A model generated the notes under the pieces. The model made no database searches. It had not been told where the DNA came from and was given only the letters and a program-made list of their open reading frames with translations. A stretch of 64,000 nt of DNA, from sequence record MG589383. The stretch is one strand, 5' to 3'. The translations under genes were made by a program, and so were the position numbers. Below are positions 6,513 through 15,401 of this stretch, one piece after another (position 1 is the stretch's first letter; the number at the start of each line of letters is the position of its first letter). The DNA comes from Shigella phage phi25-307.

Positions 6513-6520
6513 TATTTATA
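6513..6520 (-). promoter_or_regulatory. late promoter motif TATAAATA (minus strand)
   Basis: Plus strand tatttata; ~25 nt upstream of the ORF starting at 6488. Confidence 0.35.
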
Positions 6521-7097
6521 ACAACCCTGTCAAATCATTCCAATGCTTCCGGCATAATGACACATATCTATCAGTATCACCAATTTCAATTTGACTGCCA
6601 TCTGTAATTGGAAGTCCGTCTTCAGTGACTCTAGCTACCATTGTGGCCTTTTTACCACAATGACAGACACCTTTAAGTTCAACAAGCTTATCGGCAATAG
6701 CCATTAATGCTTGAGAACCTTCAAATAGATTACCTTTAAAATCTGTTCGTAGTCCATATGCCATTACCGGCACATTGTATACGTCAACAATACGACTAAG
6801 TTGATACACCTTTTCAGTAGTTAAGAACTGAGCTTCGTCAACAAATACACAATGAATATCCTTTTGTGCTGTAGCCCATTTATAGAATTCAAAGATATCC
6901 ATGTCTTTTGTAATTATATTGGCGTCCTGACGAATACCAATACGAGAGACTATTTCACCTTTTGAATCGCGAGTATCAATAGCCGGTTTAAGAACTAATA
7001 CACCCATGCCACGTTCTTTATAGTTATGGGCGGCAGTCAAAAGAGAAGCAGATTTTCCAGCATTCATTGCTGCATAAGTAAAAATTAAACTCGCCAT
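6516..7097 (-). CDS. tk: thymidine kinase
   Basis: P-loop AMNAGKS, VDEAQF, Zn-ribbon CxxC...CRKH; 193 aa as in T4 Tk. Confidence 0.9.
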   Translation of the reverse strand: MASLIFTYAAMNAGKSASLLTAAHNYKERGMGVLVLKPAIDTRDSKGEIVSRIGIRQDANIITKDMDIFEFYKWATAQKDIHCVFVDEAQFLTTEKVYQLSRIVDVYNVPVMAYGLRTDFKGNLFEGSQALMAIADKLVELKGVCHCGKKATMVARVTEDGLPITDGSQIEIGDTDRYVSLCRKHWNDLTGLL

Positions 7098-7098
7098 C

Positions 7099-7287
7099 TT
7101 AGTCCTTAGTTAAATTTTCTAAATATGTTTCTAAATCATTTTCAGCTTTATCGATAGATTTTACTAATTCGTAGTATGTTTCAGCATCTCCATAATCCGA
7201 AGCCAATTCAAAAGATAAATCTCGTTCTAAACTAATAATTTCACTGATTAAAAATCGTATTTCATTCTTTTGTTCGCGAGTAATCAT
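7099..7287 (-). CDS. hypothetical small acidic protein, 62 aa
   Basis: ORF track; ATGA overlap with upstream gene. Confidence 0.5.
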   Translation of the reverse strand: MITREQKNEIRFLISEIISLERDLSFELASDYGDAETYYELVKSIDKAENDLETYLENLTKD

Positions 7288-7475
7288 AAGGAATTTATAT
7301 AATCAATAAGTTCTTGTTCTTTATCGTCGAAATCTTTACACAGTTCTTCGTATTCGTCGGTATTAAAAGGACCGCATTCATCGCAAACTTTTTCCAATTC
7401 ACTATTTTTATCAATAACTTCGTGAATAAGAGAAAACAGTCTGTCTTTTTGTTCTTTACTTAAACTCATAACCAT
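7284..7475 (-). CDS. hypothetical small protein, ~63 aa
   Basis: ORF track frame; first ATG at 7473-7475 (track start is TTG); alternative ATG at 7469. Confidence 0.5.
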   Translation of the reverse strand: MVMSLSKEQKDRLFSLIHEVIDKNSELEKVCDECGPFNTDEYEELCKDFDDKEQELIDYINSL

Positions 7476-7678
7476 GTAACCTTTAAGCAATATTCTTCTA
7501 CATGTTGTTTACGACCTTTCTTATCAATAAAGGTATATTCAACGAATGTTCCAATATAGTCTTTATCTACATCATGTGGACTATTAATTGGGCATTTAGT
7601 ACGGCAAATGCGTTCCCATTGACGAATAATTACTGCCTTATTCTTTGGGTCATATGGATGTGGATAATGTATATTCAT
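7466..7678 (-). CDS. hypothetical small Cys-containing protein, 70 aa
   Basis: ORF track frame; start refined to ATG 7676-7678 overlapping upstream stop (ATGA). Confidence 0.5.
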   Translation of the reverse strand: MNIHYPHPYDPKNKAVIIRQWERICRTKCPINSPHDVDKDYIGTFVEYTFIDKKGRKQHVEEYCLKVTWL

Positions 7679-8172
7679 AATAATGGTTCCCAATCAACAA
7701 TCACAATTTCTAGTTTAGTGGAATACGTATCTAAAATCTCTTCGATGACGTCCCAGTTTCCACCACCAATACCTGCACCAATTCTTGGCATATAAATTAC
7801 AGGCTTTGTTATCTTATTCTTTCCGAATTCATTTAATTCTATTATACAATTCATTAAAGCATAGTACTCAAAATTAGGTCCCGGCTCAAACTGCGTATAA
7901 AGATTAAAGCAATAAGCTTTATGGGTCTTAAAATATTTTTCATAAACCGAATAAGTCCCGAGTTTAGACTCGTCTCCGAATTCGGTTTGAAGTTTATCGG
8001 CTTCCAGAATTTTTGGATAAGCCTTTGCTAATTGTCCTGCCACACCGGCGCCCATTGTATGAAAACAATTACACCCGTGAGCAATATTATTACCTTTAGA
8101 AAACAGGGCGACAATATCGCCCTTGATATAGTTTTTAATCACTTGCTGCAAGTCCTCTAGTATAAGAGTCAA
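7675..8172 (-). CDS. macro-domain (ADP-ribose binding/processing) protein
   Basis: NIAHGCNCFHTMGAGVAGQL resembles the macro-domain glycine-rich ADP-ribose pocket; no in-frame ATG near 5' end (TTG at 8172 or GTG at 8142 after GAGGA). Confidence 0.6.
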   Translation of the reverse strand: MTLILEDLQQVIKNYIKGDIVALFSKGNNIAHGCNCFHTMGAGVAGQLAKAYPKILEADKLQTEFGDESKLGTYSVYEKYFKTHKAYCFNLYTQFEPGPNFEYYALMNCIIELNEFGKNKITKPVIYMPRIGAGIGGGNWDVIEEILDTYSTKLEIVIVDWEPLL

Positions 8173-8482
8173 CTAGACGGTCCACCATAGAATTGCATGC
8201 TGCCTTATCTTTAGGTTCCGCCACCGAGCATTCTAATATTTGCCATTTTTTATAGTATCTTTTAATTAAGGTAGACGCCTTGAACCTACTAGACGCCCCA
8301 TCTTTTTCTCCGTCTTTATACGCATATAACAATTTTTGTGAAAAATCTACTTTACACTCTTGACTTTTACCACAATAATCAGACGCCGTTCTGTTTGTAT
8401 ACTCCGTTACATCAGTATATGTAGTATTAGCAAGAGCGCTAAATGAAACCAAGCCAACTATTAAAGCCAACATTTTGGTCAT
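8135..8482 (-). CDS. secreted Cys-containing protein, 115 aa
   Basis: Signal peptide MTKMLALIVGLVSFSALA; four Cys; ATGA coupling to upstream gene. Confidence 0.55.
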   Translation of the reverse strand: MTKMLALIVGLVSFSALANTTYTDVTEYTNRTASDYCGKSQECKVDFSQKLLYAYKDGEKDGASSRFKASTLIKRYYKKWQILECSVAEPKDKAACNSMVDRLVDSYTRGLAASD

Positions 8483-9021
8483 TCTTTTATTTCCAGTAGT
8501 TTATTTGATTTAAGGTAATTAGCCTTTTCTAGGACTTCAGAAGCATATTTACTTCCAGCACTTGTCTTCCATCCCGCATTATATGAGGATATAGCTTTTC
8601 TTATATCCCCGTTATGTATATTTAACCAATAAGAAAATTCGATATAAGCCCATCTGGCTGAATTAGACCGCTTAGATAGCATTTTCTTAATTTGGGCATC
8701 AGTCATATTATAACCAAGCTGGTTAATTCTTGCCCTCATTGTTGGTAGATAATTTTGGAACATTCCATACGCATGGTGACCTTTCTTATCTTTAAGATTA
8801 ATACCTGCAGATGATTCCTGCCATAGTATTGCGGCCATTATGTATCCAAGTCCTTTCTTATGCATATTTTCATGCGTTTTAAATTTTCCATCCTTAGAAA
8901 ACTGTTCCCCAAACTGATAAGCATAATTCAAGTTATCGAGTTGGACATTACTAAAAGTATGCTCGGAGCTATGTGCTGATAATGAAAGAGCAAATAGACC
9001 AGCGAGTAGTGCTTTTCTCAT
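8479..9021 (-). CDS. secreted lytic transglycosylase-like (SLT-domain) protein
   Basis: Signal peptide MRKALLAGLFALSLSAHS; ILWQESSAG, GMFQ and SYNAGW motifs resemble the SLT catalytic Glu region. Confidence 0.6.
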   Translation of the reverse strand: MRKALLAGLFALSLSAHSSEHTFSNVQLDNLNYAYQFGEQFSKDGKFKTHENMHKKGLGYIMAAILWQESSAGINLKDKKGHHAYGMFQNYLPTMRARINQLGYNMTDAQIKKMLSKRSNSARWAYIEFSYWLNIHNGDIRKAISSYNAGWKTSAGSKYASEVLEKANYLKSNKLLEIKE

Positions 9022-9029
9022 GTTTACCT

Positions 9030-9488
9030 CTAGATTTTAATCACTGCTTTAGAAGCTTTTCCTGGTAGTCGTTTACTGTTAATAATAGCCATTCTGCATT
9101 GAAGAGTCTTCATTTTGAATGCTGGACTTTCGCGACAAACTGTAAGTCCTAACCAAAGATTTCCATCAGTTATTTCTAAACGGCCTGGACGATATTCGAC
9201 ACCTTCGACAAAATCTTCATCAACATCCGGACGTGCCGGCATTGATAAAAATTCTGCAACTTCTTTAACATGATTTTTTACTTTACGAAATAATTCAAAA
9301 ACGTAGTTCTCATCTATTTCTCTCTGTATAGCACGATCTAAGAGATGTTGAGAATACTTGATATGAAAGCCTGGTAGTCCAAGAGACTTTGCAGCATCTT
9401 TTATACCGGCATTTATTTTGCGGAACTCCGTTTCAAAGATTCGACGGAGTTTATTACGGCGGATAAAAACGTCAGAATTGATAGTCAT
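9030..9488 (-). CDS. regB: RegB site-specific endoribonuclease
   Basis: Translation MTINSDVFIRRNKLRR...FHIKYSQHLLDRAIQREIDE...GRLEITDGNLWLG...QCRMAIINSKRLPGKASKAVIK matches T4 RegB as recalled. Confidence 0.9.
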   Translation of the reverse strand: MTINSDVFIRRNKLRRIFETEFRKINAGIKDAAKSLGLPGFHIKYSQHLLDRAIQREIDENYVFELFRKVKNHVKEVAEFLSMPARPDVDEDFVEGVEYRPGRLEITDGNLWLGLTVCRESPAFKMKTLQCRMAIINSKRLPGKASKAVIKI

Positions 9489-14942: not shown

Positions 14943-15401
14943 TTATAGGATGGTAGTGAGCACCTTATATAATGATTTGCCCATTACATATTCCCATTGA
15001 GAAGGTTTAATTAAAGCGAATGCATCAAATTCAGGAATCTGTCGTCCGTCTGGGAATGTATGATAGGAATTACAAACACTGTTTCTGAATTGCTCGTGCT
15101 CTACAGGGATGGTATATAGGAACAGATGAATATTCTTATTGTCTGAGTAACGATGTTCACCTAGGTCTTTCAGGAAGGCAGGGTCATATTGTGTAAACCC
15201 AGTTTCTTCTTCGCATTCACGAATAGCTGCTTCAATAGGAGATTCACCGGGCTCGACACGACCTTTAGGAATATCCCACCGATGAGCTAAAGAACCTTTA
15301 GGACGAGAACCAGTTACACGCCCCATGAATAATTCTTTATCTTCGGTAAGGAAAATAATACCAGCTGATAGTTCTTTCACTTTATTTTTCTTACTCATCA
15401 T
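14943..15401 (-). CDS. nudE: Nudix hydrolase NudE
   Basis: Nudix box GRVEPGESPIEAAIRECEEETG; start chosen at ATG 15399-15401 (AGGAA RBS; ATGATGA overlap with upstream stop). Confidence 0.85.
   Translation of the reverse strand: MMSKKNKVKELSAGIIFLTEDKELFMGRVTGSRPKGSLAHRWDIPKGRVEPGESPIEAAIRECEEETGFTQYDPAFLKDLGEHRYSDNKNIHLFLYTIPVEHEQFRNSVCNSYHTFPDGRQIPEFDAFALIKPSQWEYVMGKSLYKVLTTIL

Follow-up and report, generated by a model that had tools for sequence, protein, structure and literature searches.

The gene on the minus strand at positions 7675-8142 of the window, the 64,000-nucleotide stretch of Shigella phage phi25-307 DNA (MG589383) analyzed here, was identified from its sequence and gene order as the Mosigvirus ortholog of T4 tk.4 (adfM, anti-DarT factor macrodomain). 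Its product is probably the Mosigvirus AdfM, a stand-alone macrodomain that counters the DarTG2 defence by removing ADP-ribose. In this protein, an invariant glutamine, Gln84, stands where DarG has its catalytic lysine, so the chemistry of ADP-ribose removal may differ from that of DarG. Earlier publications already cover the gene, the fold, the part that it plays against defence in T4, and the joint occurrence of Macro and Nudix domains in phages; the point concerning Gln84 may be new relative to the literature. Beyond this active-site question, the gene is a real but ordinary RB69-group copy of a known gene and adds nothing new biologically.

The adfM locus and its start codon

The source of the window is a Mosigvirus, a T4-like phage. 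A 1.1-kb query around adfM matched 651 phage records, the top DNA matches being Escherichia phages of Mosigvirus (the RB69 group) and further phages of the T4 type, with identities of 96-99%. The T4 gene order tk, tk.1, tk.2, tk.3, tk.4, vs, vs.1, regB is also found in the window. Since this order is identical to that of T4, the ORF at 7675-8142 corresponds to tk.4. The upstream gene is vs, encoding the valyl-tRNA synthetase modifier (8135-8482, minus strand), which was assigned from its ORF and the annotation in relatives. The downstream gene is tk.3 (7466-7678, minus strand), assigned from a match of residues 6-75 of the ORF to Pfam DUF7202 (E = 2e-38); its CDS is 213 nt in relatives. Further out, tk (6516-7097) and regB (9030-9488) were assigned using the Pfam families TK and REGB_T4, respectively, and vs.1 (8479-9021) using a weak SLT match. 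The predicted protein is identical to T4 Tk.4 at 130 of 155 residues (84%), over its full length and without gaps, and has 99% amino-acid identity to RB69 Tk.4. High identity over the full length and the position between tk.3 and vs are what is expected of a T4 Tk.4 ortholog.

The longest reading of the frame is an ORF of 165 amino acids (7675-8172, minus strand) that opens at a TTG. The in-frame start-like codons are TTG at 8172-8170, TTG at 8151-8149, GTG at 8142-8140, and an internal ATG, encoding Met30, at 8055-8053. An earlier note on this DNA, made from the sequence alone, had admitted only TTG 8172 and GTG 8142. It overlooked TTG 8151 and the internal ATG, and TTG 8172 did not hold up; the GTG did, together with its spacing of 10 nt from GAGGA. 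Based on sequence comparison, the start of adfM is GTG 8142, which gives a CDS for a single macrodomain of 155 amino acids, ending in TGA. The GTG (8140-8142, minus strand) lies within GTGATTAA and overlaps the 3′ end of vs. The Shine-Dalgarno-like GAGGA (8153-8157, minus strand) lies inside the 3′ end of vs; the corresponding spacing before the ATG in T4 is 11 nt.

Evidence for the GTG came from T4, RB69, and more distant relatives. The window sequence GTGATTAAAAACTATATCAAGGGC corresponds to T4 ATGATTGTAAAATATATCAAGGGC, which aligns GTG 8142 with the ATG of T4 tk.4; in T4, a TAG closes the frame directly 5′ of this ATG. RB69 has the same GTG in the same context. Among the 38 IMG/VR relatives, 24 have an M-I-x-x N-terminus at the aligned position, encoded from ATG (n = 20) or GTG (n = 4). 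In the GenBank records of moskry and Mizar, a 468-nt CDS is annotated from the GTG, and the latter record also annotates a ribosome-binding site.

The other start codons were rejected. TTG 8172 comes first among the start-like codons that follow an in-frame TAG in vs; the N-terminal extension that it would add is unconserved, and the T4 frame is shut there. TTG 8151 lies 1 nt past GAGGA and is without a counterpart in relatives. A start at the ATG of Met30, as in NC_055749 (381 nt), would leave out the invariant H22-N25 motif as well as strand 1. Some RefSeq records, such as this one, shorten the gene to Met30 because there is no 5′ ATG, and this start is a mis-annotation. For annotation purposes, the gene should be called from GTG 8142 and named adfM/tk.4 (macrodomain, anti-DarTG2 factor), and both the Met30 truncation and the "phosphatase" label found in some RefSeq records should be dropped.

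The last 8 nt of vs overlap the start of adfM. Because the GTG overlaps the vs stop in GTGATTAA, translation of adfM is likely coupled to that of vs. The overlap takes a different form in T4, where the ATG of tk.4 overlaps the vs stop as ATGA, whereas the window and RB69 have the GTG arrangement. At the other end of the gene, the ATG of tk.3 overlaps the adfM stop as ATGA. A hairpin followed by a T-run was also detected inside the 5′ end of adfM, at codons 7-13 (8105-8123, minus strand); it was flagged as terminator-like and has a folding energy of -13 kcal/mol (z = -3.2). The hairpin is conserved in T4, and a two-sided change preserves it in loci L018 and L020. It is possibly a terminator or an RNA 3′-end structure.

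Fold, conservation, and proposed activity against DarTG2

Residues 32-146 of the protein matched the Pfam Macro family (PF01661) at 27.4 bits (gathering score, 22; E = 3.4e-6), and the whole matched PHROG 335 (E = 2e-66). Structure searches returned macrodomains, and the macro-domain assignment made in the earlier note was borne out. The AlphaFold2 model, built using 70 homologs, had a mean pLDDT of 95.2 and a pTM of 0.90 and displayed the three-layer α/β/α macro fold. In a fold comparison, the closest solved relatives were Bacteroides BT1257 and yeast Poa1p, with other macrodomains at 13.7 and below; Foldseek and PDB sequence searches returned the same relatives. As judged from the sequence and the model, the protein falls within the TARG1/DarG/Poa1p-like macrodomains, on the BT1257/Poa1p-like side and not with DarG proper.

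The ADP-ribose cleft is predicted to lie between two loops, H22-G-C-N25-C-F-H-T-M-G-A-G33 and P119-R-I-G-A-G-I-G-G-G-N-W130. The first is contained in NIAHGCNCFHTMGAGVAGQL (residues 19-38; 8029-8088, minus strand), the macro-type glycine-rich loop that had been recognized earlier, and comprises H22, C24, N25, C26, and G31-x-G33. The second is PRIGAGIGGGNW (residues 119-130; 7753-7788, minus strand). In the 70 homologs, G23, N25, and G33 of loop 1 are invariant and H22, C24, C26, F27, M30, and G31 are conserved in at least 90%; in loop 2, P119, I121, G122, G124, and W130 are invariant. A conserved Asn and a G-x-G in loop 1, followed by a second glycine-rich loop, are features of the macro superfamily. 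The conserved polar residues among the homologs are H22, C24, N25, C26, D49, K60, and Q84.

The adfM gene is under strong purifying selection. It shares 80% DNA identity with T4 tk.4; of the 92 differences, third codon positions account for 63, and the dN/dS value is 0.066. Using tblastn, homologs were found in 2840 of 50,697 phage records, mostly those of large lytic myoviruses that infect enterobacteria, Pseudomonas, Vibrio, Acinetobacter, and Aeromonas. At least 468 bacterial genomes also contain a relative of the window protein.

A role of the T4 ortholog against DarTG2 was shown genetically. In a HIDEN-SEQ transposon screen of T4, tk.4 was the sole significant gene when the host expressed DarTG2; its clean knock-out yielded DarTG2-sensitive T4, upon which the gene was renamed adfM (bioRxiv 10.1101/2025.11.20.689424). 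DarTG2 ADP-ribosylates thymidine in DNA, and the same preprint describes enzymatic removal of the ADP-ribose from DNA with the words "seems likely" (bioRxiv 10.1101/2025.11.20.689424). A further factor had been predicted from the finding that T4 without adfA and adfN is still DarTG2-resistant (PMC11825919). PhiKZ gp104, also named AdfM, strips DarT2-made ADP-ribose from a TNTC oligonucleotide in vitro, and its N23A variant has reduced activity (PMC13309987). More generally, thymidine- and uracil-linked ADP-ribose are hydrolysed by the TARG1-like macrodomains TARG1, DarG, and SCO6735 (PMC12879935, PMC13036486).

Thymidine in single-stranded phage DNA is the target that the DarT2 toxin ADP-ribosylates, which blocks replication. 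In the proposed mechanism, AdfM, as a stand-alone macrodomain of 155 residues, would take the ADP-ribose off thymidine, releasing free ADP-ribose and protecting the replicating DNA. By orthology, we infer that the allele in the window acts like T4 AdfM and that it does so by hydrolysis. The sensitivity of the T4 knock-out to DarTG2 agrees with the earlier suggestion that the protein could reverse host ADP-ribosylation. For the companion suggestion, degradation of nucleotide-derived immune signals, no support was found.

The macrodomain had also been paired with NudE. Indeed, the ORF at 14943-15401 (minus strand) is nudE and encodes a Nudix hydrolase: it matched the NUDIX profile at 60.6 bits versus 21.1 and PHROG 1185 at E = 2.7e-74, and its product has 63% identity to T4 NudE over 147 residues. 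The RefSeq note on T4 NudE gives it as [quoted passage not shown]. Chemically, a relay is plausible, with NudE splitting the ADP-ribose that the macrodomain has freed. However, nudE and adfM are 6.8 kb apart, and no coupling between them was seen. In T4, about 14 unrelated genes lie between tk.4 and nudE (vs, vs.1, regB, vs.3-vs.8, denV, ipII, ipIII, and e). Across phages, Macro domains occur in 41% of myoviruses, and the co-occurrence of Macro and Nudix domains is beyond chance (PMC9503650).

Gln84 and the nature of the proposed reaction

In an hhalign alignment with a set of DarG sequences, Q84 falls opposite the invariant lysine of F-P-T-K. This lysine is K80 in the T. aquaticus protein, the numbering being counted with a 10-residue tag offset, and mutation of its catalytic lysine inactivates DarG (PMC8120803). 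In a profile search of the PDB using hmmsearch, Q84 falls opposite K84 of TARG1 in a gap-free alignment, and Gly126 of loop 2 falls opposite D125. The TARG1 sequence used agrees with the PDB chain alignment from this search. Profile alignments were used instead of a MAFFT alignment, in which the T-Q and T-K motifs are one register off. The Gln84 codon (7891-7893, minus strand) is part of the motif N-L-Y-T-Q, and the residue lies at the end of strand 75-84 in the AlphaFold2 model. Q84 is invariant in the 70 homologs. The motif NxYTQ, which was absent from the search patterns used, occurs in 79 of the 80 bacterial relatives and 33 of the 38 phage relatives.

We also evaluated whether the family could consist of orphaned DarG antitoxins. 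The protein scored 30.4 bits against the DarG equivalog model NCBIfam NF048014, the cutoff of which is 250, and does not have the DarG catalytic lysine (K80 in F-P-T-K). A tblastn search of limited sensitivity, using one P. aeruginosa DarT2 query, covered the window and 118 related loci and detected no darT. The same single-query search detected no darT within 4 kb of the relatives in 80 of the at least 468 bacterial genomes. Flanking genes of the bacterial relatives were surveyed using crude ORF picks of about 450 amino acids or less; the 107 flanking ORFs matched 69 Pfam families, and no DarT family was among the 25 most frequent of these. These 25 of the 69 families are heterogeneous and mostly housekeeping. 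Membership in DarG was rejected on the equivalog score and the catalytic lysine, and because neither the C-terminal domain that binds DarT nor, in these searches, a neighbouring darT was found. Similarly, an origin as an orphan DarG antitoxin was without support, there being no darT found within 4 kb of the 80 bacterial relatives in the single-query search and the ORF survey. Based on Gln84, the DarG score, and the absence of darT from the flanks searched, the family therefore appears unlike an orphaned DarG antitoxin.

The substitution at position 84 suggests that catalysis may occur by a route other than the lysine mechanism of DarG and TARG1. Alternatively, the active site might be served by a lysine elsewhere in the protein, for example K60, which is nearly invariant. 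With somewhat less than even confidence, we propose that the T4-type AdfM family (HGCNC...NxYTQ...IGAGxxGGxW) forms a lysine-less branch of its own among the TARG1/DarG-like macrodomains, not derived from DarTG operons. Such a branch would nonetheless neutralise DarT2. It would remove thymidine-linked ADP-ribose through a new catalytic mechanism, with H22, C24, C26, D49, K60, and Q84 as candidate residues, or else have another primary substrate. The family is widespread and does not have the lysine found in every enzyme shown so far to remove thymidine ADP-ribose, and yet the T4 member of the family is required against DarT2.

The absence of the catalytic lysine of known thymidine-ADP-ribose hydrolases would also be consistent with a Poa1p-type small-molecule phosphatase or esterase, which would clean up ADP-ribose-1″-phosphate or O-acetyl-ADP-ribose and for which the DarTG2 phenotype would be a side activity or indirect. 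We consider this unlikely. Poa1p has the same H-x-C-N-C motif and Asp49 position and is one of the best matches in both sequence and fold, and the bacterial relatives are stand-alone genes with housekeeping neighbours. However, the transposon screen and the clean knock-out agree in tying tk.4 to DarTG2, and DarT2 targets DNA and does not act via ADP-ribose-1″-phosphate. RefSeq labels tk.4 "phosphatase; contains A1pp phosphatase motif" and PHROGs use a label of the same type, but this label was transferred from Poa1p and is not based on an assay; some GenBank records have "macro domain protein". The usual source of ADP-ribose-1″-phosphate is RNA repair of the Tpt1/KptA type. No gene of this type is annotated in this region of T4, and T4 RNA repair is not known to make the compound.

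Slightly less probable again is that the enzyme reverses the ADP-ribosylation of protein or RNA and not of DNA, removing the Alt, ModA, and ModB marks or acting on host defences whose ADP-ribosyltransferases target RNA or protein. T-even phages are reportedly blocked by CmdTAC, an mRNA ADP-ribosyltransferase system, despite having tk.4 (PMC11618068). Moreover, the sole recorded phenotype of Tk.4 concerns DarTG2. What speaks for such an activity is that macrodomains, including those of eukaryotic viruses, often de-modify proteins (PMC9503650), that TARG1-like enzymes also cleave uracil-linked ADP-ribose in RNA (PMC13036486), and that T4-like phages carry their own ADP-ribosyltransferases, as cited in PMC8120803.

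A non-catalytic shield or sponge, binding ADP-ribosylated DNA, free ADP-ribose, or NAD-derived signals, possibly feeding NudE, and blunting defence signalling, would fit the missing lysine of the nearest characterised hydrolases, the existence of macrodomains that only bind and the co-occurrence of Macro and Nudix domains above expectation in DNA viruses (both PMC9503650), and the presence of nudE in the window, but it is very improbable: the conserved H22, C24, N25, C26, D49, K60, and Q84 and the low dN/dS resemble an enzyme active site, nudE is distant with unrelated genes between, and a small early protein could not plausibly shield many modified thymidines stoichiometrically. Enzymatic removal of ADP-ribose from DNA by AdfM remains the preferred reading.

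Comparison with known systems

T4 Tk.4 (NP_049723) and RB69 Tk.4 (NP_861803) have the same length as the window protein, the same overlap with vs, and the same place between tk.3 and vs. RB69 is without tk.1 and tk.3 at the locus, whereas the window has both. T4 AdfN (gp30.3) follows the same logic as AdfM in being a stand-alone ADP-ribose remover that undoes a DarT modification of DNA (PMC11825919). In contrast to AdfM, it has the unrelated NADAR fold, acts on guanosine-linked ADP-ribose, and counters DarTG1, not DarTG2; it is encoded outside this region of the window.

Among the structurally characterized macrodomains, DarG (PDB 5M31, 5M3E, 5M3I) is described by a 338-position model with a C-terminal DarT-binding domain, whereas the window protein is a single domain of 155 residues. 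In single-sequence searches, the window protein matched DarG with E = 1e-3 to 5e-3. The catalytic pair of human TARG1/OARD1 (PDB 4J5R and others), K84 and D125, is replaced by Gln84 and Gly126. Yeast Poa1p (PDB 6LFQ-6LFU), an ADP-ribose-1″-phosphate phosphatase, shares the H-x-C-N-C loop, with AHGCNCFHTMGAG paired with IHSCNCNGSWGGG, and loop 1 of the window protein is accordingly of the Poa1p type; Poa1p mutants H23A and S30A are named in the PDB titles. The two proteins also share the Asp49 position, but Poa1p has Ser at the position of Gln84. Bacteroides BT1257 (PDB 2FG1, 2AFC) has H-x-C-N only, shares the Gln of T-Q with the window protein, and has no assigned function. Neither Poa1p nor BT1257 has been linked to phage defence.

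Finally, PhiKZ gp104 resembles the window protein in being a stand-alone anti-DarTG2 phage macrodomain, and its N23 aligns with N25. The two are only distantly related, however, with BLASTP aligning 23 residues. PhiKZ gp104 is a true DarG-type protein, matching M. tuberculosis DarG with E = 9e-25 and having F-P-T-K, whereas the window protein has N-L-Y-T-Q. The activity of PhiKZ gp104 was shown in vitro, whereas Tk.4 is known from T4 genetics. If the T4-type family is indeed a separate lysine-less branch, T4 Tk.4 and PhiKZ gp104, both named AdfM, would represent independent recruitments with different chemistry.

Start codon and apparent translational coupling of adfM

The macrodomain gene adfM (tk.4; 7675-8142, minus strand) begins with GTG at 8142, inside the end of the upstream gene vs (8135-8482, minus strand), and appears to be translationally coupled to it. 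In T4, vs was the most strongly depleted gene in minimal medium relative to LB in the HIDEN-SEQ transposon screen (bioRxiv 10.1101/2025.11.20.689424). Because of the apparent coupling, polar effects between vs and adfM may be relevant to the reading of mutants. The GTG start is also probably the reason why some RefSeq records annotate adfM as a 381-nt 'phosphatase' from the internal ATG of Met30, an annotation that costs the protein its N-terminal strand as well as the invariant HGCNC motif. In NC_055749 this shortened gene lies at 1771-2151, the counterpart of window positions 7675-8055.

A hairpin in the 5' coding region

A terminator scan of the window flagged as terminator-like a G+C-rich 8-bp hairpin at 8105-8123 (minus strand), within adfM codons 7-13. 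Its sequence, GGGCGAT ATT GTCGCCC, is followed by GTTTTCT, and its folding energy is -13 kcal/mol (z = -3.2 versus shuffles). The hairpin could be a terminator or an RNA 3'-end structure downstream of vs; alternatively, it could be a by-product of coding for G-D-I-V-A. The same hairpin was found in T4, and in two distant relatives (L018 and L020) the stem is kept through a two-sided change, GGC..GCC to GGA..TCC. Comparison of the relatives revealed that the hairpin is absent from other lineages (L008-L015).

Genomic neighbourhood

Between tk and tk.4 (7099-7693 compared), the window contains tk.1, tk.2, and tk.3, as does T4, whereas RB69 has tk.2 alone. The window phage, a Mosigvirus, is therefore distinct from RB69; at the DNA level, phage HY126 matched the 1.1-kb query around the gene best, at 99.2%.

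In the 80 bacterial loci, 107 ORFs flanking the macro gene were surveyed and the 25 most frequent Pfam families listed, none of which was a consistent partner gene. Aspartate-semialdehyde-dehydrogenase-like ORFs accounted for nine of the 107, chiefly in Desulfobacter-type genomes, ADP-ribosylglycohydrolases (PF03747) for three, and nicotinate phosphoribosyltransferase for one.

Motif variation and the two AdfM proteins

Among the 38 IMG/VR phage relatives, one carries N-L-Y-T-K in place of the near-universal N-x-Y-T-Q, its Lys falling at the position of the catalytic residue of DarG and TARG1. The name AdfM was assigned independently in two papers of 2025-2026, to T4 Tk.4 (bioRxiv 10.1101/2025.11.20.689424) and to PhiKZ gp104 (PMC13309987), macrodomains with only distant kinship. 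PhiKZ gp104 is DarG-like and carries the F-P-T-K motif, whereas T4 Tk.4 is Poa1p/BT1257-like and carries Y-T-Q.
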